IMG/VR virus record: IMGVR_UViG_3300028805_003982
Length of the DNA: 64,000 nt
Source: a virus
Lineage: Duplodnaviria; Caudoviricetes
Reading direction: 5' to 3' (one strand)
Positions 1 through 45,212 of the stretch are shown in pieces. A program made the translations under genes and the position numbers. The notes beneath the pieces were generated by a model. The model was not told the DNA's origin, searched no databases, and worked only from the letters and a program-made list of their open reading frames with translations. Position 1 is the first letter of the stretch, and each line of letters begins with the position of its first letter.

Positions 1-675
1 CTTAAGTACGATACCATGAAGGCCATAAATCCTGATTATGCCTGCTGGCTCAAGATAAACGGGACCGGGCAGGAATACCCGGTTTGCGTTAACCTGGAAG
101 GCTCTTCATATTATTACTTAAATCACAGTTTTAAAAGGAAGCCCTTGGGCGCCGGTTGTCTCTTTATCGATCCGGGATCTTCGGTCGATTGCGATAATCT
201 TATAATATACGGACATCACATGAGAAACGGTACGATGTTCGGCAGCTTGGGTAAGTTCTTGAAAGAGGAATGGACCCGTGACGGCAATAACAGCCTTATC
301 GAAGTATTTACGGAGACAGAGCACCGTTATTATGAAGTTGTTTGTGTATTAACGGCAAGTGTTTATAAAATGCCTTTCAGCATTACCGGGTATACAGATC
401 TTTCTGATTATAATGATAATGTTGCGTTTGGCAACCTGCTCCGTAAGCATTCACAGATCAACATGGATTGGAAAATAGGTGACAACGGTTTTGAGCCTAA
501 TCCCAATCTGTTTACTCCGGGTGTGTATAAAGACCGGTTCTTAACACTTATTACTTGTGAATATACACATCGTAACGGCAGGGAAGTAGTCATAGCAAGG
601 GAGCTTTACAGACCGATGTGGACGGCGGAAGAAATGATGCAGTCTGCCGCGCAATCCGAGGCGATTTCTGAATAA
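1..675 (+). CDS. srtB: Class B sortase (5'-truncated by window edge)
   Basis: Frame open from base 1; INPD..W, YPV, IIYGHHM..GTMFGSL, LITC and GR catalytic His/Cys/Arg motifs. Confidence 0.9.
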   Translation, partial: LKYDTMKAINPDYACWLKINGTGQEYPVCVNLEGSSYYYLNHSFKRKPLGAGCLFIDPGSSVDCDNLIIYGHHMRNGTMFGSLGKFLKEEWTRDGNNSLIEVFTETEHRYYEVVCVLTASVYKMPFSITGYTDLSDYNDNVAFGNLLRKHSQINMDWKIGDNGFEPNPNLFTPGVYKDRFLTLITCEYTHRNGREVVIARELYRPMWTAEEMMQSAAQSEAISE

Positions 676-729
676 AGGAGCCGTGTTTTCCTAATAAAAG
701 ATAACAAGGACGAAAAATGACGTTATAAT
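674..729 (+). promoter_or_regulatory. Class A promoter motif, copy 1 (upstream of large ncRNA)
   Basis: AAAGGAGCCGTGTTTTCCTA-ataa-AAGAT-N19-GTTATAAT; same spacing as copies at 2815 and 45048; TATAAT at 724-729. Confidence 0.75.
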
Positions 730-742
730 AGTTGTACTCGAT

Positions 743-756
743 TGAACTTTGAAAAC
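743..756 (+). promoter_or_regulatory. rrn-type boxA antitermination-like element
   Basis: TGAACTTTGAAAAC resembles Firmicute rRNA-leader boxA (GTTCTTTGAAAA), lying just after the predicted start site. Confidence 0.6.
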
Positions 757-1370
757 CTAATAATCATCAGGATAGCAGTGCATACACGTTATCTCGGTGT
801 AGAGGGGCTTATCACCCTGCCGAGACGCTGCCGGATCAGAAGAGAAGCTTTTAAGGATACTTTCCAGTTTCTCAAGCGTGCTGAACGTGAGCTTAGCACC
901 TCGTCATAGCAATGGCGTTGGCAGGCGGCGGTATGTACTGTGTGATGTTGGCGTGAACTGCTGGTGGCCGATGTAATAGACGCCAGCTCGAAAGGCTGGA
1001 AGAATCCGAATGCCCTAAGGCCGGTAACCTTAGGCACCTTTCGGAAATACCAAACAAGTCGGTTTGCCGTGAGACTGCGGAAACGCAGAGTATAACATCA
1101 GCAGGCTTCGTAAGTAGCCCAAGGCAGCAAGAACTTCAGATAATGATATTACATTTGCGAAATGTGATAGGAATTTTTCTGAATGATATGGGTGAAAGCT
1201 GGGGGTATCAATCCCTTACAGGCTCGGGCGATATCAGCCTGCGCAAGAAGGACGGTGTAGCTGACCGTTTCTCAGACTTGCGTACCTGTCGGCGCGATAA
1301 ACCGTAGCACAGATAGTATGCTGAACAAAAGGCAAGCGTGTGTGTACTGTTATCCTGATGGTTGTCGGGT
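755..1370 (+). ncRNA. Large ornate structured ncRNA, most consistent with ROOL RNA
   Basis: 755-788 pairs with 1337-1370 (34 bp, one mismatch, several G-U pairs favouring the + strand); many internal helices (792-798/819-825, 943-949/1094-1100, 1035-1040/1275-1280, TGCCCTAAGG/CCTTAGGCA, CTGCG-GAAA-CGCAG) with GNRA-type loops; no credible ORF; promoter upstream and terminator downstream. Family name is from size and architecture only. Confidence 0.75.
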
Positions 1371-1476
1371 GGTATAATATACTGAAAACGAAAGACGGCC
1401 AAGGCTCTGAAAAACCAAAATAATTATGAATAGCCTTAAAGCGAATTGCGTGCACAAGGTCGTTTTAGTTGATATT

Positions 1477-1514
1477 ACAGACTCCGAAAGATCTTCTTTT
1501 GGGGTCTGTTTTTT
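1477..1514 (+). terminator. Rho-independent terminator ending the ncRNA unit
   Basis: ACAGACTCCGAAAGA-tct-TCTTTTGGGGTCTGT followed by a T-tract. Confidence 0.85.
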
Positions 1515-1555
1515 ATTTGGGGTTAATTACGGCCACGGAAAGGAAGGGGATAGGA

Positions 1556-2224
1556 GTGAGCAGCGATTTTGCGAGAATAAGAGCAGAGGTGCTTCAAGAC
1601 GTTGAGCTGAATCCGGATTATTATGAACTGTTGTCGGATCGGGCAGATATGATAGAGTTCATAGATAAGACAGATGGGATATTTGATTATCATTATGTTA
1701 TTACAGATACGGATGTAATAACCCCGGATTGGCTGAAAAGCAAGACTTTGGTTACTCCGGATGCCCGGGAGTTATTTAGAACAGATCTGTCGAACCTCTT
1801 TGAACTGGTGGATAAATACATCCCTAAAGAAGCATATCAGACATTGCAGGAATTGATATTTATCACTAATTCGGATGCGGATTATGAATATCTCTATAAT
1901 GATAGCGAACTTTATATCAGGAAATTACTGGAAGAACATGCCTTGCCGGATGAGGAACAATTGGGTTTGTCTTGGACCGCAGAAGGGGTAGTTATCATTA
2001 ATCTGGGGAAGATCGAGACTTCAGTCAAAGAGATGACAGAGGAAGGGGCTTTCGGTTCTACTCTGGAACGGGTTGTGTTGGATACCATTGCACACGAGTT
2101 CAGACATCTTCAGCAAACTAATCCGTATGTATCACAAGAGATCAAAGACACGTTCCTCGATGACATAGAGATAGATGCAGAGGTGTTTGCAAGAAATATC
2201 AACTATGGGGAGTTGGGATTATAG
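1556..2224 (+). CDS. Putative zincin-like metallopeptidase (HExxH)
   Basis: IAHEFRH followed by EIDAEVFA; GTG 1556 after a purine-rich SD (the track start at 1469 overlaps the terminator). Confidence 0.65.
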   Translation: MSSDFARIRAEVLQDVELNPDYYELLSDRADMIEFIDKTDGIFDYHYVITDTDVITPDWLKSKTLVTPDARELFRTDLSNLFELVDKYIPKEAYQTLQELIFITNSDADYEYLYNDSELYIRKLLEEHALPDEEQLGLSWTAEGVVIINLGKIETSVKEMTEEGAFGSTLERVVLDTIAHEFRHLQQTNPYVSQEIKDTFLDDIEIDAEVFARNINYGELGL

Positions 2225-2253
2225 AAACATCAAGAGAAAGCTGAGGTGTAAAT

Positions 2254-2496
2254 ATGAATCAGTTTGGACTTTATTTTATTGATACCAAGGAGTTTGTCAG
2301 CTGTGGCAGTTATGCACAGGCGTTTAAGATGTATCTGGACGTTCTATATAAGGCTATCGATGAAAGTTTCCTGTTGCCGGATAACGTGGGAATAGCGTAT
2401 TTCGTTCCTGAGCGTAACAGAATAGAACAAGTTGATATGCTTGGACGTGTGACAAGATCCGTTCTCATATCCAAGGAAGAGATCACGTTCAGTTGA
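2254..2496 (+). CDS. Hypothetical protein
   Basis: GAGGTG SD, 80 aa. Confidence 0.6.
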   Translation: MNQFGLYFIDTKEFVSCGSYAQAFKMYLDVLYKAIDESFLLPDNVGIAYFVPERNRIEQVDMLGRVTRSVLISKEEITFS

Positions 2497-2586
2497 AGGC
2501 TTTTGGCAATATGCTACAAAAACTGATTAAATGTCTTGGGATTTTTGTGCTATAATACCTACGAGAAATACTATAGGTATAACAAG

Positions 2587-2814
2587 ATGAGTCCTGAAGA
2601 TTATTTAGAGAAGTTTAGAATGCTTGCCAATCAAAAGGCTTTTATATGTCCGTCCACAGATCCGCTGTTGGCGGAGTCTTTGTGTGAAGAATGGAATGAA
2701 ACCGTTATGCAGGCAACAAAGGCGGGGCTGGCTCATAGCGAGATACGCAAGATATGGGAAGAAACGTCCTTTATAAAAGGTTCTCTTTTAGGGATTGACC
2801 GGAAATCCATGTAA
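2587..2814 (+). CDS. Small hypothetical protein, paralog of 14994-15203
   Basis: Shares WNET...K.GL....IWE...SFIK with the 14994 ORF; TATAAT at 2551-2556 upstream. Confidence 0.65.
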   Translation: MSPEDYLEKFRMLANQKAFICPSTDPLLAESLCEEWNETVMQATKAGLAHSEIRKIWEETSFIKGSLLGIDRKSM

Positions 2815-2870
2815 AAAGGTTCCGTATTTTCCTAGAGATAGACACATTATTAATTTTCTGCTGTTATATT
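2815..2870 (+). promoter_or_regulatory. Class A promoter motif, copy 2
   Basis: AAAGGTTCCGTATTTTCCTA-gaga-TAGAC-N19-GTTATATT. Confidence 0.7.
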
Positions 2871-2876
2871 ATAAAG

Positions 2877-2975
2877 TGTTACTATGCTACATGATTCCCA
2901 ACGAAGCAGATGTAGATGTAGTGGAATACTCCTTTTTAATTGATGGTCGGTGCCGGAAACGGCATCGATCTTTTT
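2877..2975 (+). ncRNA. Candidate ~100-nt small RNA with exposed anti-SD
   Basis: Hairpin (2880-2893/2910-2923), unpaired GAATACTCCTTTTT, then terminator GGTCGGTGCCG-GAAA-CGGCATCGATC-TTTTT. Confidence 0.55.
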
Positions 2976-2993
2976 ATGTTGAAGGGACAACGT

Positions 2994-3641
2994 ATGGATT
3001 GGTATGAGTTTGACAGTTTGGAAAGACAAAAAGAGTATTTTCCAGAGTTGCAGGCTGCTGTTGATTCCGAATACGGGCAGCACCTTTGCTATCCTTTAAG
3101 GGAAAATATCTATAATGCCTTTAAATTAACACCTGTTAGCAGTATCCGATGTGTGATACTTGGACAAGACCCGTATCACGGGCCGGGGCAGGCGACCGGA
3201 TTGGCTTTTTCGGTTCCGCATAGTTTCCCGTTGCCGCCGTCTCTTCGTAACATCTATAAAGAGATAGAAGCGGATACAGGTAAAAAGACGGTGAATCCTG
3301 ACGGGTGCCTTGAACCCTGGGCCTCTCAGGGTGTATTGCTCTTGAATTCATCTTTGTCGGTCAGGGCACACGAACCCGGGTCTCATGCAGATCTGGGGTG
3401 GGGGACCTATACCGATAATTTCATTAAGATGCTGGGCGCCTTGGACCAAGATATCGTCTATATGTTATGGGGTAAGTTCGCAAGGAGTAAAAAGCAGCTT
3501 ATAACAAACAAAAGGCAGTTGATCCTGGAAGCGCCTCACCCGTCTCTGTTTTCGGCAAACCGGGGATTTTTCGGATGCGGGCATTTCAGTAAATGTAATG
3601 AATATCTTGAATCAAAAGGTCAGAACAAAATAATCTGGTAA
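2994..3641 (+). CDS. ung: Uracil-DNA glycosylase family 1
   Basis: ILGQDPYH, GLAFSV, PPSLRNIYKE, WASQGVLLLN, LWG, HPS motifs; ATG 2994 after GAAGGGA. Confidence 0.95.
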   Translation: MDWYEFDSLERQKEYFPELQAAVDSEYGQHLCYPLRENIYNAFKLTPVSSIRCVILGQDPYHGPGQATGLAFSVPHSFPLPPSLRNIYKEIEADTGKKTVNPDGCLEPWASQGVLLLNSSLSVRAHEPGSHADLGWGTYTDNFIKMLGALDQDIVYMLWGKFARSKKQLITNKRQLILEAPHPSLFSANRGFFGCGHFSKCNEYLESKGQNKIIW

Positions 3642-3653
3642 AGGAGATTTTTA

Positions 3654-3845
3654 ATGTATCAGTACGAGGTCGCTAAACAAAAGGGAGGCAAGAACTATTT
3701 TTGTTATGAGGTCGGAGAGCAGCTGCCGATTAAAGGAACTTTCGGCGATAAGAAAAAAGTAATGAAGATTGCAGCCTCACTGAACGGCGTTTCGTACGCG
3801 GATTTTGTGAAAAACAGAAAAAACGGTTTTGATATAGAAAAATAA
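3654..3845 (+). CDS. Small basic hypothetical protein
   Basis: AAGGAG SD, 63 aa. Confidence 0.6.
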   Translation: MYQYEVAKQKGGKNYFCYEVGEQLPIKGTFGDKKKVMKIAASLNGVSYADFVKNRKNGFDIEK

Positions 3846-3900
3846 CGGGTGTAATACCTTTGGAGTAACCAAAAGGTATACCATTTGTAATCTAATTGTG

Positions 3901-4055
3901 ATATAAATAGTGTGTCGGGGAAGTATAAGTTAGACGAGATGTTTTGATGTAGTTTTTGGTCGTAATTGTAATTAGTGTACGCTTTGTTGTCAGATTTTGT
4001 TTTCCTTGATAATGATAAGTTACTTATAGGTTTTCCCCGGCACGTTTATTTATAT
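3901..4055. repeat. Imperfect ~30-bp inverted repeat enclosing a G/T-rich spacer
   Basis: ATATAAATAGTGTGTCGGGGAAGTATAAGT (3901-3930) pairs with ACTTATA..TTTCCCCGGCACG.TTATTTATAT (4022-4055). Confidence 0.7.
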
Positions 4056-4096
4056 AACCGCTTATGCGGGTATTAAATCTTAGTGGAGGTTAGATT

Positions 4097-5377
4097 ATGC
4101 ACAAATTCAAGAACTTTCTCGGCATACTGTGTGCTGTTGCATTGATGGCAGGCTCAGTATTCAGCGTATCTGCAGCCGAGATAGGAGAGGGCACCGCTGA
4201 GACCAATGATACGGAGATCCTGATCCCCAAGAGCATCAATGTCACAAATCCGGAGGACATTGAGGTTTGGACACCTGCGATCACGTATTCATATGAGATC
4301 AGAGGTGTTGAGAGCAGATTGGGTTCTACGGTAACTGATACGGAAGGCCGCAGGGTATCCGTAAGGCCTGGACCTGATGGCGGTGCAGTGTTGCCCACGG
4401 GCGTTGTTGAGTTTGACTCACAGAAGGTCATGGCAAACACTGCTGCCAACGAAGTTGAGGATAATCTTGTGGTTAATGTCGATCTCAGCAAGTTTGAACA
4501 GCCAGGCATTTATCGTTATGAGATCAAGGACGTAACAGACTTGGGTCTTCTCCGGGCAGCAGGTATCGAAAGAGCCGAAGATTATGATCTTATCAGATAT
4601 CTTGATGTTTATATCATCAGGGATCAGGATACGGGAAATCTTAAGGTTTCCGGCTACGCTTTGACTAACGGATATGTACTCGATCCCGAGCATACGGGGT
4701 ACCCGGTAATATCCATTGAAGCATGGGAGACCGACAAATCTTCAGGTTATGTACCACGGTCAGAGATCTTTGACGACTATACGTATGATATCGACGGCAC
4801 CGCACAGATGACCGATACGTATGATACGTATAACGTTAAGATTACTAAGCAGGTTACAGGCGATATGGGTGACACGTCTCACGAGTTCCCCTTCGTAGTT
4901 GATGTAACCGGACAGGATGAGATCAAGTACAGCCACGGTAAGTGCGCAGCAGATCAGGCAGATCCTGACATTACAGAAGATACTAATACAGATTCCATCA
5001 GCACAACGATGAAGAACACCGAGTATTACGTACTTCAGGGATTGTCCCCTCTGGCCACGGTTGCTGTTGAAGAGACCAACGACACTTATGACGGTTATAC
5101 AGTAACGGTAACTGACAAGGACGGAACTGAAGTAGTCCCCGCAACAGACGCTGTGGCCTTTAACGGCACGGTTAAAGTTGATGCCTTCCAGGTATCAGAC
5201 TACGAAACTCCGGATGTTGAGGCTTCTGCAAATGCCAAAGACGAGCTTACATACGACAATCATCTGGACAACGTATCTCCTACAGGCGTTATCCTTGCGT
5301 CAATGCCTTTCGTAGGCTTGGCAGGTGTTGGCGGCACGATGCTCGTTTTGGGCAAGAGAAAGAAAAAGGAAGACTAA
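4097..5377 (+). CDS. Backbone pilin (Spy0128/FCT-like), sortase B substrate
   Basis: Signal peptide, FEQPGIYRY motif, K/E/N isopeptide-type pattern, VSPTG + hydrophobic helix + basic tail. Confidence 0.85.
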   Translation: MHKFKNFLGILCAVALMAGSVFSVSAAEIGEGTAETNDTEILIPKSINVTNPEDIEVWTPAITYSYEIRGVESRLGSTVTDTEGRRVSVRPGPDGGAVLPTGVVEFDSQKVMANTAANEVEDNLVVNVDLSKFEQPGIYRYEIKDVTDLGLLRAAGIERAEDYDLIRYLDVYIIRDQDTGNLKVSGYALTNGYVLDPEHTGYPVISIEAWETDKSSGYVPRSEIFDDYTYDIDGTAQMTDTYDTYNVKITKQVTGDMGDTSHEFPFVVDVTGQDEIKYSHGKCAADQADPDITEDTNTDSISTTMKNTEYYVLQGLSPLATVAVEETNDTYDGYTVTVTDKDGTEVVPATDAVAFNGTVKVDAFQVSDYETPDVEASANAKDELTYDNHLDNVSPTGVILASMPFVGLAGVGGTMLVLGKRKKKED

Positions 5378-5380
5378 GTT

Positions 5381-5950
5381 ATGAGCGATGAACTTACGGG
5401 AGCTACAACTGATATGACAGAGGTTAACGCCCCCGGTAAGTGGAAGACCTTCTGGTCGTCCTGGGCAGATGAAATAAAGCGGTTAGTCCGCAATGTTTTT
5501 GTCGTCCTTGTCGGGCTCTGGATTATGTTCGGCTTTATAGTAGGAATCGGCAGGGTCGGTTCAGTCGAGATGTCCCCGACCGTGGGCTTGGGCGATATCG
5601 TAATGTATTCCAGACTCGACAAGGCACCCCGGACAAATGAGGTAATCGTTTTTGATATGGAAGCCTCCGAATGTATTGGCCGCGTAATCGCCGGACCCGG
5701 TGATAAGGTAGACATTTCCGAGCAAGGTCAGCTGTTCGTGAACGGCCATCTTGTTCAAGAGAGCAGGATCACAGATCCCACATATCCGTATCCTGAATAT
5801 GTTTCGTATCCTTTAACTGTAGCTCCTGACAACTATTTTGTTTTGGGGGATAACAGGAAGTCCGGTGTGGACAGCAGATATTACGGAACGGTTCCGAAAG
5901 ACCAGATCAAGGGAACACTTATAACACTTATCAGGCACAACAATTTTTAA
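5381..5950 (+). CDS. SipA/LepA-like signal peptidase I homolog (likely inactive pilus chaperone)
   Basis: S26 motifs GDNR..DSRYYG; catalytic Ser/Lys positions read E (VEMSPT) and G (IGRVI). Confidence 0.85.
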   Translation: MSDELTGATTDMTEVNAPGKWKTFWSSWADEIKRLVRNVFVVLVGLWIMFGFIVGIGRVGSVEMSPTVGLGDIVMYSRLDKAPRTNEVIVFDMEASECIGRVIAGPGDKVDISEQGQLFVNGHLVQESRITDPTYPYPEYVSYPLTVAPDNYFVLGDNRKSGVDSRYYGTVPKDQIKGTLITLIRHNNF

Positions 5951-5971
5951 GGTTAGAGAAAGGGAACAAAC

Positions 5972-7105
5972 ATGTCCTTAGCAGCATTTTTCAAATTGAG
6001 TAATCTTGCGACCAACGCGCTCGCTACAGTAACAGCGGTATCCGTTATCGGATTCTCCGGTTATATGGTGTACGACAACTACATGGCGCAGAATAAGGCT
6101 TATGGATATGATCTGTTATCTTATAAACCGTCTGTCGAAGAAAATACCATCTCAATGCAGGAGTTGTATGATCTGAACCCGGATATTTGCGGCTGGATCA
6201 CGATCGATGATACACATATAGATTATCCGATAGTTCATTCTGACGATGATCTGTACTATGTAAACAGAGACGCGACAGGTCAGCCTTCACTTACGGGTTC
6301 CATCTATCTGCAGGCTAAAAATGAATCGGATTTTACGGATTCTTACAATCTTTTGTATGGCCATCATGTTGACGGCGGCGCAATGTTCGGGGATCTTTCC
6401 CTGTTCCGTGACGCCGACTTCTTTAAGAAACATACTGAAGGTACTCTGATCACTTTGAATAAAGCGTATTCCATAGATATCATTGCTTGCGTCAGCACTA
6501 ATGCTTACTGTAAGTGCGTGTATGACAGGACTAAGCTTGACAAGGCTTCATACGAAGAGCTTATTGCAGACCCTGAAGTCTTTGTAATGAATCAGAATGC
6601 CCGCAGTTTGGATTCGGCAGTCAAGTATCTTGCTCTTTCAACCTGTTACGGTGTTTCGACTGACGGAAGAACCGTTGTCATCTGTAAGATCACTGAGATC
6701 CCTGTTCCGGTCGATCCGCCCAAGCCTGATCCTAAGCCTCCGAAGGTCGTTAAGACCGGTGAGACATACCAGGTAGGCTGGGGCATTATCAACGTAGCAG
6801 CAGTCTTTATGACTTTGCTTACTGCGGTTCCTTATCTTAAGTTCTTTAAGGACGATAAGAAGAAGATATACGCAAGGCTCGGTTTTGCGGCAAGCATCGT
6901 AGCTACTATATCCGCGGCACTCGTATTCTTTAGGGTGGAGGAACTGTCCGGAGCAATGATGATAACAGACAGATTTACTTTCATTTTCCTTTTGTTCTTC
7001 GGAGTTGCATTACTCGCAGAAGAACTGATAACCAAGGTTTACACAAAAAAGAACAAAAATAAAGGCATTTCCATTAAGGAGGAAAAAAGATCATGGGAAG
7101 TTTAA
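5972..7105 (+). CDS. srtB: Class B sortase with C-terminal 3-TM extension
   Basis: LYGHH, LSTC, GR; Pro-rich linker then three hydrophobic segments. Confidence 0.9.
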   Translation: MSLAAFFKLSNLATNALATVTAVSVIGFSGYMVYDNYMAQNKAYGYDLLSYKPSVEENTISMQELYDLNPDICGWITIDDTHIDYPIVHSDDDLYYVNRDATGQPSLTGSIYLQAKNESDFTDSYNLLYGHHVDGGAMFGDLSLFRDADFFKKHTEGTLITLNKAYSIDIIACVSTNAYCKCVYDRTKLDKASYEELIADPEVFVMNQNARSLDSAVKYLALSTCYGVSTDGRTVVICKITEIPVPVDPPKPDPKPPKVVKTGETYQVGWGIINVAAVFMTLLTAVPYLKFFKDDKKKIYARLGFAASIVATISAALVFFRVEELSGAMMITDRFTFIFLLFFGVALLAEELITKVYTKKNKNKGISIKEEKRSWEV

Positions 7106-8382
7106 AACTTAAGAGAGTGGCAACCCCTATTCTTGCAGCGGCCATTATGGCCAGTATGGCTTCGGTTTCATTTGCCGCAGACATTGGTGCGAACGGTATC
7201 GTTGAAACGTCGGATACGGCTATCAACATTCCTAAGTCGGTGACACTGTATAACGACGGATTTAACAAGTCCTATCTCCCGGCTATCACATTCAATTTCA
7301 CCATCGCTCCTGCGACATTGACCGAAGAGGTACACATTACTGACTCTAACGGTCATACCGTTGCAGTGCAGTCCGGTCCTGCAAATTCCATTTCCAATCC
7401 TACTGCAACCGCAGTATTTGAGGAACAGGAAGTCGTTGATACAGGTGCTACTCTTGACGAGACAGTAAGGAAGAACATGACTTGGAATGTTGATCTTACC
7501 AAGTTTACAAAGCCCGGTGTTTACCGTTATACGATCACTGACGTAACACCTATCTCTACTTTGTATGCTGCAGGCCTTGAGAGACCTTCGACATACGATA
7601 CGACAAGAGAACTTGATGTTTATATCAAGAGGGATGCTACTACAGGTAATCTCGTAGTTGGCGGATATACTCTCCACGATGACATCACCGGTGATATCAC
7701 TCCCGCAACCGAGAAGGACCCCGGCTTCGTGCCTGAGAGCTTCAACCCCGGTAACATTTCTAACGGATATGATACTTATACCACATATAACTATCAGGTT
7801 CAGAAGAACATTACCGGTGAAATGGCTGATCTGAGTCACAAGTTCCCGTTCGCAATATCTTTGAACGACGGCGGTTCCGTTGCAGGTCTTGACTATTACG
7901 GAGCAGCAGGTAACGCAACTCCTGCATACAGTAATGCAGCAACGATTAACACAACCCTTGGAAACAGTGATGTTTACCACGTTTACGCTCTTAATCCCAA
8001 GGCTTCTGTAAGTGTTGTCGAGACTAATGATACAAATGATTCATACGATCTTTATGTAACTACTGTTAATGCTTCCGGCAGTTCAACAGATGCTCAGGCT
8101 GAAGCGCTTGCCGCAGGTGCTGCATCAACAGCCAGAACAGGTAACGTATCAACATACGCTACAGCCAATTCAGCGTCCAACGTATCAGGCGAAGCTCAGG
8201 CCGATCTGCAGTCCAACGGTTTCAGAAATGACCTTCCCGGCATCATCACAACTGGCGTTGTACTGAAGTCTCTTCCTTTCGTAGCTCTTGCAGGTATCGG
8301 CGGTCTTATGTTTGCACTTTCCAGAAAGAGCAAGAAGAACAAGGTAGCAGAAGATATTCAGGGCGATTCTTCTGAGATGTAA
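7093..8382 (+). CDS. Backbone pilin (FCT-like)
   Basis: Paralog of 4097; FTKPGVYRY; IITTG sorting motif + TM + basic tail. Confidence 0.85.
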   Translation: MGSLKLKRVATPILAAAIMASMASVSFAADIGANGIVETSDTAINIPKSVTLYNDGFNKSYLPAITFNFTIAPATLTEEVHITDSNGHTVAVQSGPANSISNPTATAVFEEQEVVDTGATLDETVRKNMTWNVDLTKFTKPGVYRYTITDVTPISTLYAAGLERPSTYDTTRELDVYIKRDATTGNLVVGGYTLHDDITGDITPATEKDPGFVPESFNPGNISNGYDTYTTYNYQVQKNITGEMADLSHKFPFAISLNDGGSVAGLDYYGAAGNATPAYSNAATINTTLGNSDVYHVYALNPKASVSVVETNDTNDSYDLYVTTVNASGSSTDAQAEALAAGAASTARTGNVSTYATANSASNVSGEAQADLQSNGFRNDLPGIITTGVVLKSLPFVALAGIGGLMFALSRKSKKNKVAEDIQGDSSEM

Positions 8383-8423
8383 TTCAAAAAATAAATTAAA
8401 AAGGGGTTTAACAAGGTAACTTT

Positions 8424-8936
8424 ATGAAAGAAAAAATAATGGCGTTTTTCAAAAAATATGATGCACTTCCGCGTATATTCCTGAAACTGGCCATTTTCGC
8501 AACGCTTCTTTATATCGCATTCGGGTTCATAATAGGTGTTTCTATTATGAACTCGGACGATATGAAGCCTAATGTCAAATTAAGGGACATAGTTGTTTAT
8601 TCAAGGATAGATAAAGATTACCTGAACAGAACGGCCGTCGTGTACGAGGTTAACAATAACACGTTGGTCGGAAGAATCGTAGCTTTACCCGGCAGCCATG
8701 TGATCATTGATGAAAAAGGCAATGTTAACGTAGACGGTATTACGATCCAGGAAAGCGAAGTTTATATGAGTAAAAAGCAGGAAGGGTTCTCAACGGACGT
8801 AACATTAGGTCCTGATGAGTATTTCATTCTTGCAGACAACAGGCAGGTCGGTATCGACAGCAGATACGTAGGGCCTGTCAGTAGCAGCGCTATCAAGGGA
8901 GAAACCTTAATAATAATAAGAAGGTATGGTATATGA
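8424..8936 (+). CDS. SipA/LepA-like signal peptidase I homolog
   Basis: DDMKPN and VGRIV (D/G at the catalytic positions, as in S. pyogenes SipA), ADNR..DSRY. Confidence 0.85.
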   Translation: MKEKIMAFFKKYDALPRIFLKLAIFATLLYIAFGFIIGVSIMNSDDMKPNVKLRDIVVYSRIDKDYLNRTAVVYEVNNNTLVGRIVALPGSHVIIDEKGNVNVDGITIQESEVYMSKKQEGFSTDVTLGPDEYFILADNRQVGIDSRYVGPVSSSAIKGETLIIIRRYGI

Positions 8937-10042
8937 ACAAGGGACAGAAAGCTCTTGGTGTTACGGACAATGTTATCACAAAGATGCTTAGGATCTGTTC
9001 TGTTATCCTCTTGATAGGCTCCTGCTATATGTTCTTTGACGTTTACTTCCTCAATAAGGGGGCTTCATCTGAGGTTGTGGCAGAACGCTATAAACCTGAG
9101 ATCACCGTTTCTGATGAAGGAAAGAGGATAGTTGACATGACCGAGCTTAAACAGATCAACCCCGATATCAAGGGTTGGCTTACGATGGATGATACAGGAA
9201 TAGACTATCCGGTTCTTCAGGGCGATGACGATTATGAGTACTTAAACCGTGACATGTACGGTAATTCCTGTCTTACAGGTTCGCTGTACTTCAGGTCGAT
9301 AGATACTACCGAGAACGCAGATGCCGACTACCGTATGATCTACGGGCATCACATGGACGCGAGTTCCATGTTTGGCTGTCTCGATAAGTACATTGACGCA
9401 GAATACTTCAGCAGCCATAAGACAGGTACGCTCATAACCGATCATGGTATCTGGAATCTTGAGGCAGTTGCCGTACTTTATACGCACGCGTATAACAACA
9501 CTTTTTATTACGGCAGGTCTTTTCCATGTATCGTCAGGGGCTTGGAAACTAAGCATATTCAGACGATCAGCGGAAACCTAAGTGAAGCAGATGCTCCTAT
9601 CCTGATCTTATCGACTTGTTATGAGATCAAGCCGAACGGCAGGCTTCTTGTTGTCCTTAAGATGACGCCTGCTGAAGACGTGGTAGTTGACAGCGGTTCT
9701 GCTACTGATGAAGACATTTCGATCAAAGACCTGAGAATGGGTCAGATCCAAGAGGGGGTAAAACCTACATGGAGTGTAATGAATATTGTCTTCGTATTTA
9801 TTACAGTCCTGTGTAGTATCACGATGACTGTTGACGCTGCTTTAAGAAAACAGCTTAAGCAGGTTGACGGCGTTGTTTGGGCGTTGATCACGCCACTTTC
9901 GATAGTTTTGTTCTTTGTAGGGCAGAAATTATCTGGAAGGGGGACTTTTGTTGATAAGTATACGATTGTTTTTGCCGGAATAGCGATCGCGGCTTCCGCA
10001 CTTGCTGCGTATACTGTCAAACGGAAAGGAAAAGCGATATGA
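8933..10042 (+). CDS. srtB: Class B sortase with C-terminal 3-TM extension
   Basis: IYGHHM, LSTC, GR; C-terminal hydrophobic segments. Confidence 0.9.
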   Translation: MNKGQKALGVTDNVITKMLRICSVILLIGSCYMFFDVYFLNKGASSEVVAERYKPEITVSDEGKRIVDMTELKQINPDIKGWLTMDDTGIDYPVLQGDDDYEYLNRDMYGNSCLTGSLYFRSIDTTENADADYRMIYGHHMDASSMFGCLDKYIDAEYFSSHKTGTLITDHGIWNLEAVAVLYTHAYNNTFYYGRSFPCIVRGLETKHIQTISGNLSEADAPILILSTCYEIKPNGRLLVVLKMTPAEDVVVDSGSATDEDISIKDLRMGQIQEGVKPTWSVMNIVFVFITVLCSITMTVDAALRKQLKQVDGVVWALITPLSIVLFFVGQKLSGRGTFVDKYTIVFAGIAIAASALAAYTVKRKGKAI

Positions 10043-12447
10043 AGAAAAAGATAGTATCAAGTTTATTGGCTCTGGTAATGCTGTTGGCTTTGCCGATGAC
10101 AGTTTTTGCTGCATCTAAAAAGACCTACGGTGAAGACTTTTTCCCGGTAGATTATGCAAAAGGATATATCAGGCTGAATGCTACAGGTGTTGAGTGTATC
10201 CCCAGTTCAGCCGTTAAAGGTCCTTATACCGGTGGGTGGGGAGACAATACTTATACCTATTTCTGGGCTGATAATACATCTAAAGATTCTTCTATTTATA
10301 TAGACTTTATCAACGGTGCCTGTTACGACAGCGAACTGTTGGATGTACGTATATACCTCTGGTGTAATAATACATCAGCGGGCAGTAAAGATAACTGGTG
10401 GGCTATGACTTCAGGCGGCCTTCTGGTCCATGACCAGCCTACTAACGGCGACCAGGTTTGGGCAGACGCTAAGTATAGAACATCTATGCAGTTCCATTTT
10501 TACCGTAAAAAAGCTGACGGTACCAGTCAGGTCGGTAAATCTGCATATGAGACGTCCGTTCAGGGTGTTATGCGTTTTAACGATTTGGATGCAGGTGAAG
10601 GATACGAGATTACACATGGTTTAAAAAACATCTATGTTGCCACTCCAACAAAGGTAACTGTAGATACTACTAATAACTATGTTTACGGAACCCGTGTCAC
10701 CGCTGGTTCAGACGAGTCAGATGACCGAGACAGAGCTTGGATCACGTTTGATGCCACGCCGGATGAACCATTCACTTTAAGGTATTGGACCCGAGGGCAT
10801 TATACATCCCGTATCCACTATGTAGGGCAAACCGTAAAATATAAAATAGTGGGTAAGACTCCTTTATCTCAATCGATCAAGATATCGAGCGAGAATGTTG
10901 CCGAGTGGGGTAAATACGTTCTCCGTACGGTCGATGATGAAATAGGCAGTTCTTATTATGCGCAGCAATTCATCGGCTGGACAGAGCGTACTGCCGGCGA
11001 CCGTACTGAACTGGCTCCTGCGATGGTCATGAATCTGACTACCGGCGGCATGTCTCTTTATGGCAGTTTCACATATAATATATTCCTTTTTAACGGTGAA
11101 GGCGGAGATATATATTTTAGTGGGGAAGATATAGGAGAGGGTCTGCCTGCCGGATCTAACCATACGTATGATATTGTTCCTCACCCGGGTTATTATATTA
11201 AAAACATAAATGTTCAATACCGTGATCTTGACGGCGAGCTTCAGACAAAGGCTACGTATGGTCCTGATACTATCGCTTTAGGGGATTCTTACACTTTAAA
11301 CATTAAGGGGCTTGACCGTAATTATGAGATCAGTGCTGAATACGATACCATCGTTAATCTGAGCACTTCCGTTCTTAACGGTACGATTTCGCCGGAAGAA
11401 GGAACTCATAAGTATCCTTATGGTTCAAATGCAACGGTTACATATCAGCCCATCAGTGAAAGATATGACCTTGATAAGATCTATATCGACGGTGTTGATA
11501 CAGATTTTTCAGATATCATGTCTCAGTATATCTTTGAAAACATGACTGAAGACCATGAGATCAGGGTTGAATATCAGCCGTGGTATGAGATCACAACTGA
11601 AGTCGTTAATGGTACTATTACTGATGATGAAAGTCATATCAGGGTAGGATCTGACCGCACCGTAAGCTATGCTCCGTTGAACGACAATTTCCGTTTAACA
11701 AGCATCAAGGTTGACGGCGAATCTGTAAGTTTGGATGACTACACATCCGATTATGCCTTTAACAATATATCGGCAGACCACCACGTAGCGGTTGTTTATC
11801 AGCCATACAGAAGCGGTACTATCCATTTTATCGACACTGATAACAACGAACTTGCATCTCCTGTGGATTACGAAATGATAGGCGACCGGGCTGATTTTAA
11901 CCCTTCAGCTACTCTGACTGCATATACTAATGCTACAAACGGTATCTTAGATGACGGATATTCGTTAATATCAGATGAAGTAGCAGACAGAGATCAGGAT
12001 GAAGACGGTAACGGTTTCCTGGATTCTGCCGTAGGCAGCCATAAGGATCTGTATGTTGTTTTCGAAGGCTACAGGTACGGTGTTATTCATTACGTTGATA
12101 CGGAAGGCAATAAGCTGGCAGATGATACTACGTATTCCAATGCCGGAAACATTGATAACTTTGACGACAGCGTAACGCTTGCTGCATATACACAGAATTC
12201 GGCCAATCTGACGGCTCGTGGATATGTAGTCGTTTCTGATGACGTTGCAGACCGTAACGGTTGGTTCCTTCCCGCGATCAACAGCACTAAGGAAATGACG
12301 GTTGTATTTGAATTACAGCCGCCTGTAATGACAGGTATTCAGGACTATCCGGCGGCAGTCTTTTGTATTATGTGTCTGGCCGTATTTGGCATCGTTCTGA
12401 GTGTTTATATCAAAAAGAGCCCTGAAGAAGGCGAAACAGAAGAATAA
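10039..12447 (+). CDS. Cell-wall-anchored adhesin / ancillary pilin
   Basis: Signal peptide, repeated beta-rich modules, two IH(F/Y).DT..N.LA modules, PPVMTG + TM + charged tail. Confidence 0.75.
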   Translation: MKKKIVSSLLALVMLLALPMTVFAASKKTYGEDFFPVDYAKGYIRLNATGVECIPSSAVKGPYTGGWGDNTYTYFWADNTSKDSSIYIDFINGACYDSELLDVRIYLWCNNTSAGSKDNWWAMTSGGLLVHDQPTNGDQVWADAKYRTSMQFHFYRKKADGTSQVGKSAYETSVQGVMRFNDLDAGEGYEITHGLKNIYVATPTKVTVDTTNNYVYGTRVTAGSDESDDRDRAWITFDATPDEPFTLRYWTRGHYTSRIHYVGQTVKYKIVGKTPLSQSIKISSENVAEWGKYVLRTVDDEIGSSYYAQQFIGWTERTAGDRTELAPAMVMNLTTGGMSLYGSFTYNIFLFNGEGGDIYFSGEDIGEGLPAGSNHTYDIVPHPGYYIKNINVQYRDLDGELQTKATYGPDTIALGDSYTLNIKGLDRNYEISAEYDTIVNLSTSVLNGTISPEEGTHKYPYGSNATVTYQPISERYDLDKIYIDGVDTDFSDIMSQYIFENMTEDHEIRVEYQPWYEITTEVVNGTITDDESHIRVGSDRTVSYAPLNDNFRLTSIKVDGESVSLDDYTSDYAFNNISADHHVAVVYQPYRSGTIHFIDTDNNELASPVDYEMIGDRADFNPSATLTAYTNATNGILDDGYSLISDEVADRDQDEDGNGFLDSAVGSHKDLYVVFEGYRYGVIHYVDTEGNKLADDTTYSNAGNIDNFDDSVTLAAYTQNSANLTARGYVVVSDDVADRNGWFLPAINSTKEMTVVFELQPPVMTGIQDYPAAVFCIMCLAVFGIVLSVYIKKSPEEGETEE

Positions 12448-12463
12448 GAAACGAGGTTTTAAG

Positions 12464-15007: not shown

Positions 15008-15203
15008 AGGTGAAGCAGAGAGAAGGCTTGCCGACATAGCGGCGCATAAAAAGGATCTGAGTCCATATAACAGGGAAGAGGAGATCCGGGAGTTATTCGA
15101 TCTTTGGAACGAAACCATCCCTTTTGCGTTCAAAGTAGGTCTTTCTGTTATAGATCTTGACCGTATCTGGGAGAGCGTTCCCTGGTCGTTTATTAAGAAA
15201 TAG
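14994..15203 (+). CDS. Small hypothetical protein, paralog of 2587-2814
   Basis: Overlaps the adhesin stop; shared WNET/IWE/SFIK motifs. Confidence 0.65.
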   Translation: MFKTKGEAERRLADIAAHKKDLSPYNREEEIRELFDLWNETIPFAFKVGLSVIDLDRIWESVPWSFIKK

Positions 15204-15207
15204 ATAG

Positions 15208-15237
15208 GAGCTTGAGCCGTGTGCTCAAGCTCTTTTT
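15208..15237 (+). terminator. Terminator of the pilus/adhesin operon
   Basis: GAGCTTGAGC-cgtgt-GCTCAAGCTC-TTTTT. Confidence 0.85.
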
Positions 15238-15356
15238 CTGTGAAAGGGGTTTTTGTTAATAGAGATGATTCGAACCTTACAACGGGTTTATTGGCTATCC
15301 AAGATGTGATAAGTGATCTCTACATTGTTAAAGATAAATTGAAGGGGGTTAAAAGT

Positions 15357-15671: not shown

Positions 15672-15794
15672 TAAATATAGTGTATTGCAAAAAATATACA
15701 AAAATTTACAGAATTCAATACGTTTTCTGTTTTTTGATGTAATAATAAATGTAGGAAAACATTTCGTATAACATTTGAGACAAGGAGATTAGGT

Positions 15795-19214: not shown

Positions 19215-19223
19215 GTATAAATT

Positions 19224-29832: not shown

Positions 29833-29930
29833 GTGTTGATTTATATTAAAAAGTATTGCATTTTACCGCATTTTTCCTAAAACGCAGTTATACTAATGGT
29901 ATAACCAAATAAATGAAAGGAGCGCTCTAC

Positions 29931-30227
29931 ATGGCACGAAGCAAAGTGAAAATATCTGAAGCGCGGAGTTTCCGTATCCGAAAAGACCTTTGTGACAGGC
30001 TTGATGATTATTCGGATGTCAGTATGATCCCTAAAACAGCCTTGGTCGAAAAGGCTCTGGAAGAATATCTCGATAAAGTAGCCCCGGTAGAAGAGGGTTA
30101 TGAGAACTCTTATGTCAGCCCGATCGTTGCAGAACAGGAGCATTATCAGGCACCGGCAGCAATAAGGCGTCCCGCAAGTGTTTCTACGGGAAATCTGCAG
30201 GCGTTAATGAACAATTCACAGCATTAG
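29931..30227 (+). CDS. Ribbon-helix-helix DNA-binding protein
   Basis: RSFRIRKDLCDRLDDYS...IPKTALVEKALEEYL; AAAGGAG SD. Confidence 0.8.
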   Translation: MARSKVKISEARSFRIRKDLCDRLDDYSDVSMIPKTALVEKALEEYLDKVAPVEEGYENSYVSPIVAEQEHYQAPAAIRRPASVSTGNLQALMNNSQH

Positions 30228-39900: not shown

Positions 39901-42900
39901 AGGGATATGGTCCCAAGGAAGATACCACTTTCTATGCGCATTACATTCCTGAAAACATTGTTAATTTCAATTTGAATGGCGGTGACTCTTTTGTAAGAGC
40001 TGCGGTAGGTAAAGGTGTTTCCTTTAATAGCAATACCGGTGTCGCAAGTATTCCGGCCGGGTATTCTTTCGGAGAATTGCCTATTGCGCATAGAAATTAT
40101 TATTCGTTTGACGGATGGTTTACAGAGCCTGACGGCGGTGAACAATATACAGGTAATGTGCCTGTTGCTGAAAATGCAACATATTTTGCACATTGGACAG
40201 CACTTGACACTGCTACAACAGCCGGCAATGTTACTTTAAATGCCTCTGCATACTGGACATCCAACAGTTCAGACTTCAGATATTTAAATACCAGCGAGAC
40301 CGGTGCCGCTTTCGTTAGCTTTGAGATCATAGGCAATAACGTTACCATTCCTTCACAGGGAGTGGTTATAGATTTTGAGTATGACAATGCTCTAGTAGAT
40401 TCATTAGATGCAAACTTTGCAACTTATCCGAATACTACAACATCACAGCCGTATTTCTCAAAATTAGATGCAAACCGTTTGACTAATAATAATGCTTTTA
40501 CCGGAAGTGTCGGCTGCAGAGCTACGGTCAACTTTAATGGCAGTAGCTGGTCCGGGGTCGAGGATATTGATATCAGGATAACGGTAGACACCAATCTTGA
40601 CGGCATCTATGAAATAGATGAAACTTTAACCTTGCAGGCTTGCGGGCACTACGCAAACAGCAATGACACAACCCTTGAGTACGGTCATGGCCGTGTTTAC
40701 AGGTCTTTCTATACCTGGCAGGATGCGTGGGGCTCAAAGCCCTCTGATGCTGATGATTACTTCTATGTTGTATGGCAGTATGACGCTGATTTTAACAGAG
40801 GTAGCAGGGATAGCAAGGCAGACCTTACAACAATGCCCAATGAGCAAGGCGAGTTTATAACTTACGGTTATTTATCCGGCAGCACTCCTTATTACAGTGT
40901 TTTCTCTGATTCTGCTCCTGCCGGAAACTCTGATTATAATAACGCGTATAAGGGTCTTATTCTTTATCGTTATCCTAAAACAATGATCGATGAGGAATCA
41001 GGCAGATGCATAGTTCGAAATCAGGCCCGCTTGTATTATAACGGTGTAGACATGGTCATAAATGCCGATCCTTATACCTTCCGTTGGGATATCCAGGGCA
41101 GGGATGAGGCTAATTTCATTATGGGTGTAGCTTCATCTTACAATCGTGTGCAGGAAACCCAGGAGTCCTTCCTTGGTGGTGATACCATATCTTTAGACTG
41201 GTCTGTAACGACGCAGAATGTTAACGATTGGCGCAGCAAGACTTTAGAGATCGATCTTAACGGCGATGGCAATATCTCTGATGACGAGAAAACTACAACA
41301 AGCTGGTTCTTGAAGAAAGATATTACAATCAATCAGGGCCCTGATGACGTTTTCTACAATTCGGGCGCTCCGGATGATTATTATGTAACTAACCCGGCAA
41401 CAGGTCTTGTACCTCTTACTGAAGATGACTATTCTATCACACAGGTAAGAATCGCAAGAGCTTATATCTGTAAGTCTGAATCCGGCATAGATGCCGATGT
41501 TGCCTGGACTACCAGAGAACAGGTCAACAGACAGGTTCCTTATGAGCTTTGGATAAGAAGAGCGGCCGACAGCCAGTTACTCTTATTTAAAGAATCTACC
41601 ATCAATACCTATACAGGCGGTTCTCCTTCCGAAACGATAGAGCTGCCTGAGGGCACGGTAGAGTATGAGTTCAGGTTCTCCACTTCAGATTATTACTGGT
41701 CGTTCACTTTAGTTCCTACGATCAAGCTTAATCTGAACAATCATACCAGGGCATTGTTTAACAACGATGCTATCCAGAACGCTTCTTCGTGTGTCAGAAT
41801 GAGCGCGGATCTCACCGTTAATACAACCGACCCGCAGGACATTGATGCTGATCTGCCCGTTGTAAACATTGACTGGCATGATGGTATGTCCGGTACTGTT
41901 TTGGACGACATCTATGAACTTACGCCTACTATTCGCGGCGATCTGACTCTTGCAACGGGTCTTGTGTCATCCGATAAGAATGAAGATGCTGATAATGGCG
42001 GAATAGTTACTAATTATTTTACCATCCAGGGTCACAACAGTTCTACCGAATATAATGATAAGAGAGCCATAGATACCGGTAAGTTCTATGTACTGCTCCC
42101 TGCACACGTAACTTTCCAGCGTGTATACAGCTTCGAAGGTAAGAACGAAAACTGCGGTGTCTGGAGCTATATCGAAGATGATCTGAAGTATATCAGTCCT
42201 TCGCACTACACGATAGAACACATTGATAACTGGGAAGGCACCGGCCGTACGATGTACATCATATCGTTTGATTGCACCGGGGAGCGCTTCGCTTATTACA
42301 ATGTTGGTATAGAGACTACAAGGACTTATGACGACTGTACCAGATACGGATCTTCAGGCCTTGTATCCTGGGCTTTTGTTAATACAACCGAGCCTGTAAA
42401 TTACGTATCTTATTACAACACTTCTGATACGGTTCCTAATGCAGAAAAGGATCTGTATACACAGGAGCTTGGTATCTACAATCATAAGATCCTTGGCTGC
42501 ACTACTTTGAGCTTCAGGACTGCAACAACAGATGTTTCCACTGGGCTTACTTCGAGTATTTTGAATAATGCCGGAAAGTCCAATCCCAGTGGAGAGACAT
42601 TGTTGTTCCCGGGTGAAGATTTCAGTGTCGATATTACTTATGGACAGTCCGTGAATGATACAACAGATCATTTAGTCCTTAAGAATAAATTAGACGGTAA
42701 CAGCACTTTTAACAGTATCTATGTGCCTACTTTGGCGGGTAAAGACGATACCGGAGCTTCAGCTTCCGCGTCTGGCGTAGTCTGGTATTCGGTAGCTGAA
42801 AATCCTGACTTTGATAACATTGATACAGAACATGGCTGGACACAGGATGCTCCTGTAGGGGAGACCGTATACGGTATTGTGATCGACTATACAACAGCAG

Positions 42901-43661: not shown

Positions 43662-43687
43662 GTCTGCGTTTACGATATTTCCTTTCT

Positions 43688-43724
43688 GGGCGGGCGGGTT
43701 CTTCGGGATCTGCCCGTTTCTTTT
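43688..43724 (+). terminator. Terminator after the giant adhesin
   Basis: GGCGGGCGGGTTC-TTCG-GGATCTGCCCGTT then T-tract. Confidence 0.8.
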
Positions 43725-43733
43725 GACTATTGA

Positions 43734-43768
43734 AAGACGGGTCTAAAACACACCAGCCCCGTTATACC
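43734..43768 (+). promoter_or_regulatory. Class B promoter motif, copy 2
   Basis: AAGAC-ggg-TCTA-N15-GTTATACC. Confidence 0.5.
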
Positions 43769-43813
43769 TTATGGCATAAGGATTTTATTTGTAACAGAAA
43801 GGGAAGCTTTGTT

Positions 43814-45010
43814 ATGATGGAAGATTTTAATATAATGGAGTATCTCGACAAAACTGGTGTTGCATATAAGGAAAAGGGGTACGATCGCGTAGTTTTGGAA
43901 GCGCACGATTCATTAACGATAACCCCGTCCCGTAATCTGTTTAATTGGTTTTCCAGGGGCATCGGAGGATACGGTGTTTGGGATTTTATCAGACTCGTTG
44001 AATATGAAGGACAAAACGTCAGCAAAAGAGATATTATGCAGCGTCTTATTGATGTGTTTGGCGAGGACAGGTGCGGTGTTACTGATTGGGATGAGGGGGA
44101 TCGCAAGAGGCCGAAGCCCGTATTGCATGAGGCTAAATATCAGGTACAGTCGCAGCCTCAGAATACCATAGAATTTGCTTTGCCGGAGAAAAACAGGAGC
44201 GTTGACCTGATCCGTAAATATCTTTGTGAAGAAAGAGGCATTTCTGAAAAGGTGTTTAACGAATTTGTTTCAAGGGGCCTGTTATATGAATCAAACATCA
44301 AGATAACCAAGAATCGTGACGGCACGGACAGGTCGAAGCCTTTTTATGCCCATAATGCCGTATTTGTCAGAATAGACCCCAGGGACGGGAACATCAAGGC
44401 GGCAACTGTTAAAGGTTCTTATGTGGACCCGACTACCCATAAAAGATATAGTAGGGATGTGCCCGGATCTAATAAGTTTGACTGTCTATTCTATTTTCAG
44501 GGCAAAAATGTTAAAGAGCCCGATCACGTTATTCTCTTTGAGGCCGAGATAGATCTTATGAGCTACTTGTCACTTCAGGAAGAAAAAGGCGTCAGCATGG
44601 ATAATTTTGTATGTGTTTCTTTAGGCGGCATCAGCGCTGATATGACGATCCGTGCTAGTCTTCAGCACCTTTTTGACCGGTTCCCGACAATAAAAAAGGT
44701 AATGATATCTTTTGATAATGATTACGACAAAGAATTAATGGGCAAAATAAATGTCGGCAGGGAAGCAATGGTGTCTTTACACCAGAATCTGATACAGGCA
44801 GGGAAAAAGCCCGGATGGATCTTTGTTAGGGACGGGGACGACGGAACTCGTTGTAAGGATTGGAATGACTGTCTTCTGGAATACCGCAAGGGGAATTGGA
44901 CTTTTCTTGGTCAGGGCAAGAAACAGGACAATGAGCCGGATGGCAATGGCAAGACAACCGATCCTAAAAAAGATACTCCTGATGACGATGCAGGACCCGG
45001 GGGTCAATAA
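43814..45010 (+). CDS. Toprim/DUF3991-type primase-like protein of conjugative elements
   Basis: HDSL..FNWFSRGIGG, YLCEERGIS, NAVFV, FEAEIDLMSY, SLGG, FDND, KDWND. Confidence 0.85.
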   Translation: MMEDFNIMEYLDKTGVAYKEKGYDRVVLEAHDSLTITPSRNLFNWFSRGIGGYGVWDFIRLVEYEGQNVSKRDIMQRLIDVFGEDRCGVTDWDEGDRKRPKPVLHEAKYQVQSQPQNTIEFALPEKNRSVDLIRKYLCEERGISEKVFNEFVSRGLLYESNIKITKNRDGTDRSKPFYAHNAVFVRIDPRDGNIKAATVKGSYVDPTTHKRYSRDVPGSNKFDCLFYFQGKNVKEPDHVILFEAEIDLMSYLSLQEEKGVSMDNFVCVSLGGISADMTIRASLQHLFDRFPTIKKVMISFDNDYDKELMGKINVGREAMVSLHQNLIQAGKKPGWIFVRDGDDGTRCKDWNDCLLEYRKGNWTFLGQGKKQDNEPDGNGKTTDPKKDTPDDDAGPGGQ

Positions 45011-45047
45011 CCGCGCGATATTCATTACTTTTTGTGAAAGTTTTGTA

Positions 45048-45103
45048 AAAGGTGCCGAGTTTTCCTAACAAAAGACGCGTTTTTTCTAAACCGCCGTTAC
45101 AAT
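45048..45103 (+). promoter_or_regulatory. Class A promoter motif, copy 3
   Basis: AAAGGTGCCGAGTTTTCCTA-acaa-AAGAC-N19-GTTACAAT. Confidence 0.7.
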
Positions 45104-45109
45104 ATAAAA

Positions 45110-45212
45110 TAGGATGAGTACATTTGATATGTACCAAACGAATATGACCGCGATATGCGGTAGTTAAGTCTCCGGGTTTCTTTGGGCAGCACCTCTCCGG
45201 AGACTTCTTTTT
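45110..45212 (+). ncRNA. Candidate ~100-nt small RNA or attenuator leader
   Basis: Hairpins GTACAT-ttgat-ATGTAC and ACCGC-gatat-GCGGT, terminator AAGTCTCCGG...CCGGAGACTT-CTTTTT. Confidence 0.55.

Follow-up and report, generated by a model that had tools for sequence, protein, structure and literature searches.

The 64,000-nucleotide window analyzed here, which is catalogued in IMG/VR as the virus record IMGVR_UViG_3300028805_003982 (Duplodnaviria; Caudoviricetes), belongs to an uncultured, Clostridia-like conjugative element of Gram-positive type and of roughly 235 kb (parent contig of 234,910 bp, ENA ERZ27256871), and contains a 56-bp promoter motif that stands in front of a ROOL RNA and in front of two short terminated RNAs. 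The motif is real, under constraint, and built like a promoter, and the element has it in at least four copies, three in the window and one in a variant; on balance it is probably the promoter common to a regulon for surface and transfer functions that includes ROOL and in which each copy heads a terminator-gated operon. An earlier note on this DNA had read the copies as the mark of a dedicated regulon of non-coding RNAs with partners of ROOL, an idea that is largely replaced here by that of the terminator-gated regulon including ROOL.

A scan of both strands of the window with the degenerate 56-bp pattern gives exactly three matches, gap-free and at the places where the earlier note had put them, all on the + strand (Table 1), and the 20-nt core AAAGG-NN-CCG-NN-TTTTCCTA occurs in three exact copies; at up to 3 mismatches the core has two extra matches, at 37286 (+) and at 40006-40025 (-), both within coding sequence, where shuffled sequences lead to an expectation of 0.71. 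The fourth copy is found in L013, a variant about 98% identical to the element that was reached via the ung protein and that also carries copies 1 and 2. In the alignment of the four copies 27 of the 56 columns of the module are invariant, versus 3 of 40 upstream and 3 of 54 downstream, and the pairwise identity is 0.55–0.80 inside the box versus 0.22–0.40 in the flanks. Since the divergence of the 19-nt spacer within the motif equals that of the flanks, this conservation is due to position-specific constraint and not to recent duplication, the copies being old and specific positions being under selection; between the window and L013 there is one substitution per box, both at degenerate positions (684 and 2853).

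The -10 hexamers of the four copies (TATAAT, TATATT, TACAAT, and TATAGT) are close to the sigma-A consensus and are all accompanied by G at -14 and T at -13. The 29-bp box spans about -62 to -34 and replaces the -35 element: in three of the four copies no -35 hexamer is found 16–18 bp from the -10, the nearest TTGACA-like hexamer being 20 bp away. The description of a TAGACA/AAGACG-type hexamer at 20 bp and of a missing standard -35, given in the earlier note, is thus right with the exception of copy 1, in which ATAACA (701-706; 10/12 matches) is a usable -35 at 17 bp. The upstream box most plausibly binds a dedicated factor, and the four copies would be active promoters with starts about 7 nt after the -10. 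When the exact box was searched for in 185,579 GTDB species genomes, in JGI metagenomes, and in IMG/VR, only chance matches came up; most of them fall within coding sequence, and none is accompanied by a suitable -10 at the proper distance. The box is therefore confined to this element lineage and does not serve ROOL as a promoter in general. Nothing was found by megablast of window positions 1-20000 and blastn of 600-1560 against plasmids and phages.

The RNA behind copy 1, previously called ROOL-like, is a full-length member of the ROOL family with a score well above the gathering threshold (Table 1). It begins 40 nt past the copy; the helix that closes it spans about 755-1370, and structure starts about 20 nt after the predicted start of transcription. 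In L013 the RNA scores 238.7 bits and differs from that of the window at 1 of 585 nt, with 0.8–3.9% divergence in the neighboring coding sequence. The 5' leader of ROOL contains, at 742-757, the stretch TTGAACTTTGAAAACC, which we take to resemble the boxA of Firmicute rRNA operons; in L013 the 39-nt leader has two substitutions, one within this stretch (748) and one at its edge (758), so the stretch is apparently not strongly constrained. At the 3' edge of the closing helix (1368-1379) there is an extended -10-like sequence, TGGTATAAT, followed by a structured segment of about 100 nt and then by the terminator; it could be an internal start or merely part of the helix. ROOL searches found none in 101 sampled genomes of one class and none in 48 kb of DNA of the relatives described below.

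The same layout recurs at every copy: a leader (or ROOL) and a strong terminator come first, and an operon in the same direction follows. In agreement with the earlier note, each unit in the window closes with an intrinsic terminator, the last one identified by its fold. Its further statement, that full copies are absent before protein genes, is correct to the letter for the window and misleading all the same, as promoterless protein genes begin 24–70 nt past each terminator. Behind ROOL, the gene 1556-2224 has no recognizable promoter between itself and the terminator; its product, of 222 aa, contains an HExxH motif (HEFRH, codons from 2093) and has only weak metallopeptidase-like matches (TIGR04549, E 0.0025; PmbA_TldD_3rd, E 0.016). 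Behind copy 2, the ATG of ung, a start confirmed by the 215-aa homologue P0122, lies 24 nt past the terminator stem, a gap that leaves too little room for a promoter of its own; ung would therefore be reached by read-through from the box promoter. At the fourth copy, in L013, the adhesin leader consists of a hairpin-terminator, an 18-codon open reading frame (ORF), and a second terminator, with the adhesin ATG about 45 nt further on; the ORF (L013 239-295) has a strong ribosome-binding site and may encode a leader peptide. Leader peptides in the small RNAs behind copies 2 and 3 (sRNA2, 19 codons; sRNA3, 17 codons) were considered and rejected, having no ribosome-binding sites and no conservation in relatives.

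Behind copy 3, a consensus scan of 45206-45277 listed no promoter-like site, the best by eye being a weak TTTACG-N16-TATAGA (8/12) below the threshold, and the transfer genes that follow 45277 are separated by gaps of 13–50 nt. Terminators also occur inside the transfer operon: two were identified by the scan (52610-52642 and 56974-56992), and further hairpin/T-run sequences lie in gaps at about 54596-54625 and 55178-55205. The stem of 52610-52642 ends 25 nt before the start codon of the coupling protein, with no space for a promoter, and the same arrangement is seen at 19305-19330 of the related contig L010. Because of these small gaps between terminators and genes and of the missing promoters, the small RNAs are also to be regarded as 5' leaders of protein operons (ung and pili at copy 2, transfer genes at copy 3, adhesin and sortase at the fourth copy), and the claim of a regulon of non-coding RNAs only is not supported. 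No minus-strand consensus promoter directed into 2877-2980 or 45110-45280 emerged in a check for countertranscript attenuation of the pCF10 prgQ/Anti-Q type, for which consensus scans are weak evidence.

Table 1. Promoter copies, RNAs, genes, and related loci (window coordinates, except for the fourth copy)
Feature	Position	Strand	Remarks
Box promoter, copy 1	674..729	+	Box 674-702; -10 TATAAT 724-729; predicted start ~736
Box promoter, copy 2	2815..2870	+	Extended -10 TGT-TATATT; hexamer 2865-2870; predicted start ~2877
Box promoter, copy 3	45048..45103	+	-10 TACAAT 45098-45103; predicted start ~45110
Box promoter, fourth copy	L013:69-124		~325 nt upstream of the gene for a 2083-aa TQ-domain adhesin
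ROOL RNA	769..1353	+	Rfam RF03087; 241.4 bits, gathering score 99.1; full model, 1-574 of 574
Structured tail and strong intrinsic terminator	1372..1519	+	Stem 1477-1509, then T-run
Leader / short terminated RNA (sRNA2)	2877..2980	+	5' hairpin and terminator 2945-2970 (11 bp, GAAA loop, T5)
ung, uracil-DNA glycosylase	2994..3641	+	First gene behind copy 2; followed by a sortase/pilin/signal-peptidase cluster
Transfer-operon leader (sRNA3)	45110..45212	+	Two small hairpins and terminator 45166-45206
Transfer operon behind copy 3	45277..62482	+	125-aa protein, MobA-type relaxase 48107, coupling protein (T4CP) 52667, PrgI 56457, VirB4 57067
Partial box CCG-N3-TTTTCCTA, one extra base	29866..29879	+	8 nt upstream of GTTATACT, promoter of the ribbon-helix-helix gene 29913-30227
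Second promoter class, TCTA-N17-TATACC, G at -14	43742..43772	+	Before the DUF3991/Toprim gene; second member at 62640-62670

The transfer end of this layout can be followed in related elements, the comparative depth being of three lineages: the window element, L010 (a contig of 128,850 bp, SRR28201449), and L011/L012. In fact, the 125-aa protein that opens the transfer operon belongs to a family of only three lineages among 1.8 billion representatives; its identity to that of the window is 42% in L010 and 36% in L011/L012, and that of the DUF3991/Toprim protein is 48%. In both relatives the order is giant protein, DUF3991/Toprim gene, terminator, promoter (-10 GTTATAGT or GTTATGCT), leader with terminator, ribosome-binding site, and transfer genes. 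When their upstream regions are anchored on the -10, TGCC[G/A] stands in register with the CCG block and TTGCAC replaces TTTCCT; such divergence of the box in a fixed register is the pattern that would be expected of an operator co-evolving with its own regulator. Judged from these sequences, the leader with its terminator ahead of the transfer operon is a conserved family trait and the upstream box varies by lineage.

The stems of the leader terminators differ among the three lineages, and the loop [A/T]GCACCTC is kept (window 45186-45195, L010 11277, L011 5728). The GCACCTC of this loop matches the anti-Shine-Dalgarno core CACCUC; the occurrence of GCACCTC in ROOL (896) was tried as a link to the leaders and rejected, the 7-mer being present at chance frequency. 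Another element shared by the three lineages is the block ATATTTCCTTTCT, followed by a strong terminator directly after the giant surface-protein gene (window 43676-43719, L010 about 9110-9165, L011 about 4080-4130).

In the mechanism that we favor, the module would consist of a -10 of the host sigma-A type (TAYAWT, with T at -13 and G at -14) and of an upstream box that most likely serves a DNA-binding regulator, encoded by the element itself, as its operator, and each copy would start a transcript whose first 65–110 nt (at copy 1, the ROOL unit of about 780 nt) end at a strong intrinsic terminator. Promoterless operons would be next in line, that is, the giant adhesin with sortase, the HExxH protein with small genes, ung with pili, and the relaxase with the type IV secretion system (T4SS). 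Because a strong terminator lies early in each unit, the short terminated RNAs would be the default product and expression of the operons would require read-through or antitermination; a dedicated protein on the box and terminators that gate expression would allow the four or more copies to coordinate ROOL with the operons for adhesin, pili, ung, and transfer. Since the units share promoter DNA and not leader RNA, a DNA-bound factor is favored over an RNA-based system of the conAn2, canT, put, or EAR type; an activator or repressor of the usual kind could fill this role, and so, with less likelihood, could a Q-like antiterminator that loads at the promoter.

Several points weigh against this proposal. 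Protein scans with Pfam and NCBIfam (50 window proteins at E <= 0.01, with ten small proteins, including those of 1556-2224 and 45277-45654, rescanned at E <= 5) found no sigma factor, helix-turn-helix (HTH) activator, ConAn1 (PF17362), or Q-type protein among the window proteins and provide, for the regulator gene, just two weak candidates, the ribbon-helix-helix proteins of 29913-30227 and 3654-3845. As regards the dedicated element-encoded activator or sigma factor proposed in the earlier note, the constrained box and the -35 missing in three of the four copies speak for a dedicated factor, and no gene for it was found in the window. The ribbon-helix-helix protein of 29913-30227, with a partial box in the promoter of its gene (Table 1), might bind the box and regulate itself, though as a candidate it is weak. 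The census of copies covers the window and L013, and in the approximately 170 kb of the element outside them copies before ordinary genes or at random sites are possible. Copy 1, with its fair -35, may be a constitutive promoter. As for a zipper-type antiterminator, in leaders folded up to the terminator loop the 5' arm has no competing upstream pairing, and the minimum free energy folds are simple hairpins plus terminator. Start sites, termination efficiency, and read-through are all predictions made from the DNA.

Ordinary protein genes in the window have extended -10 promoters, such as TGTGCTATAAT at 2546-2556 and TGTGTTATAAT near 30300, or belong to a second class characterized by xxTCTA, a distance of exactly 17 bp, a TAnnnT/C hexamer, and G at -14. 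The member of this class before the DUF3991/Toprim gene is kept in the three lineages (window 43742, L010 about 9190, L011 about 4190); ordinary protein genes here use, in other words, another type of promoter with the same -10 context.

These promoters bear on the possibility that no dedicated factor exists and that the box is a UP-element-like or bent sequence boosting host sigma-A promoters devoid of a -35, so that the copies would be simply strong constitutive promoters. Other promoter types of the element share the sequence context of the -10 (G at -14, GTTATA), the box sits where the C-terminal domain of the alpha subunit (alpha-CTD) binds, and extended -10 promoters need no -35; however, the invariant G/C blocks (AAAGG, CCG, TCC) are unlike A/T-rich UP elements, the relatives carry a different sequence in the same register, which would be surprising if a conserved subunit of the host read the site, and other promoters of the window manage without the box, all of which makes this explanation unlikely. 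An element-encoded alternative sigma factor, with the box as its -35-type determinant, would account for the absence of the standard -35 and for the resemblance of TTCCTA to the xxTCTA "-35" of the second class. It is very improbable, since TTCCTA and the AGAC hexamer lie 30 and 20 bp from the -10, beyond the reach of region 4 of known sigma-70-family factors, the -10 is a textbook sigma-A hexamer, and no sigma gene was found in the window.

Two other explanations concern what happens after initiation. The short RNAs might act in trans as independent molecules, induced along with ROOL and serving it as partners, cargo, or co-regulators, with the downstream genes transcribed separately, in a dedicated regulon of non-coding RNAs. 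Strong terminators close all four units, so that the short RNAs are probably the main products, and in the comparison with L013 sRNA2 (no difference over 110 nt) and ROOL have diverged less than the neighboring coding sequence; both small RNAs also fold better than shuffles (z -3.0 and -2.2). Nevertheless, the position of ung and the lack of recognizable promoters for the adhesin and transfer genes speak against independent transcription, the relatives keep the transfer leader in cis even though ROOL was not found in their 48 kb, and the RNAs themselves give little sign of a common partner: the leaders have no common sequence or structure beyond the first ~9 nt after the -10, Rfam at relaxed thresholds offers no credible family for sRNA2 or sRNA3, equal or better duplex energies with ROOL are reached by 89/100 and 83/100 shuffles, and duplexes between the small RNAs are not better than shuffles. 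Such a regulon is unlikely, and the role of ROOL partners or cargo that was suggested earlier for the small RNAs is not supported, given the lack of a shared RNA motif and of pairing with ROOL beyond that of shuffles.

Alternatively, the box may be the DNA loading site of a processive, Q-like antiterminator; the promoters would be constitutive and would yield only short RNAs until the loaded factor passes the leader and internal terminators. The sharing of promoter-adjacent DNA among units whose leader RNAs differ, which argues against RNA-based antitermination (put, EAR, conAn2, canT), the early terminator in every unit, and the internal terminators of the transfer operon all suit it. On the other hand, no Q or antiterminator family is matched by the window proteins, a consistent -10-like pause element (TAnnnT) is missing from the early transcripts of all copies taken together, and the position of the box at -62 to -34 is equally typical of ordinary activators, so this explanation has a low probability. 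The same low probability applies to its broader form, in which an element-encoded, DNA-recruited (Q-like) antiterminator or activator loaded on the box would switch the four units from short RNAs to adhesin, pili, and T4SS, with ROOL as a bona fide member. The terminator-gated regulon with a regulator on the box thus remains the preferred reading.

All credible genes of the window lie on the + strand. Apart from the transfer genes and the DUF3991/Toprim gene, they include three sortase/pilin/signal-peptidase clusters and the gene for a 3221-aa surface protein; taken together, these genes mark the element as conjugative and as Gram-positive in type. L013 has, at 10843-13793, an insertion absent from the window, located between a 63-aa gene and a pilus cluster and encoding an IS1595-type transposase, a BrnT/BrnA toxin-antitoxin pair, DUF6037, and an HTH protein.

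The proposed arrangement is reminiscent of several known systems. At the lambda PR' promoter, on which Q acts, a promoter-adjacent DNA element is combined with an early terminator and the short 6S RNA is the default product of a long operon. This likeness in promoter-adjacent DNA and early terminator is an analogy only, as here neither a Q homologue nor a pause signal was found and the box lies upstream of -34, whereas in lambda the element lies between -35 and -10. A closer parallel is the conjugative plasmid pLS20, in which the Pc promoter with its Rco operators is followed by a 456-nt leader, a zipper-type attenuator, and conAn processive antitermination (PMC8191782, PMC13401043, PMC8955417). 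The two share a Gram-positive host, a regulated promoter, a leader with an intrinsic terminator, and a very long co-directional conjugation operon with internal terminators; they differ in that the box here heads at least four units instead of one, the leaders are of 65–110 nt, neither ConAn1 nor a zipper-type fold was found in the window, and no conAn2-like gap of 260–600 nt follows the first gene. In fact, the only large non-coding RNA in the window is ROOL, which belongs to another unit than the transfer operon. Similarly, in Tn916 terminators gate the conjugation genes and read-through needs a function of the element (PMC11658703); canT, however, is a single cis-acting RNA, while the four leaders considered here share DNA upstream of the start and no RNA motif. 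The pLS20 and Tn916 theme would thus be extended to a multi-operon regulon whose common part is promoter DNA and not leader RNA. A caution also follows for "small RNAs" of mobile elements recognized from a promoter plus a terminator, for which the presence of promoterless downstream genes has to be checked before the label of sRNA is assigned.

With regard to ROOL, a large cage-forming RNA of unknown function, the Lactobacillus salivarius megaplasmid provides the best comparison: its ROOL is abundant, with a strong promoter only roughly mapped and a co-expressed neighboring HTH gene (PMC5643018). The RNA described here resembles the known ones (RF03087; PMC5737381; PMC5643018) in being full-length, in being carried by a large extrachromosomal or mobile element, and in having its own promoter and terminator; it differs in the promoter box shared with adhesin, pilus, and transfer operons and in the lack of adjoining tRNA or phage genes, and neither a regulator nor a regulon link for ROOL is described in PMC5643018 or PMC5737381. 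If the Q-like or activator switch were true, this orphan RNA would have its first defined regulator and a physiological context, namely mating or entry into a new host, and the box is a short DNA bait for the search of such a regulator. The observation is solid as regards the copies with the constraint on them, ROOL, the terminators, the order of the genes, and the layout conserved in relatives, and its main point of interest is the link between ROOL and conjugation, which the shared box makes concrete and testable. Terminator-gated conjugation is in itself a known pattern (PMC8191782, PMC8955417, PMC11658703, PMC13401043); here it would extend over several units, ROOL included.

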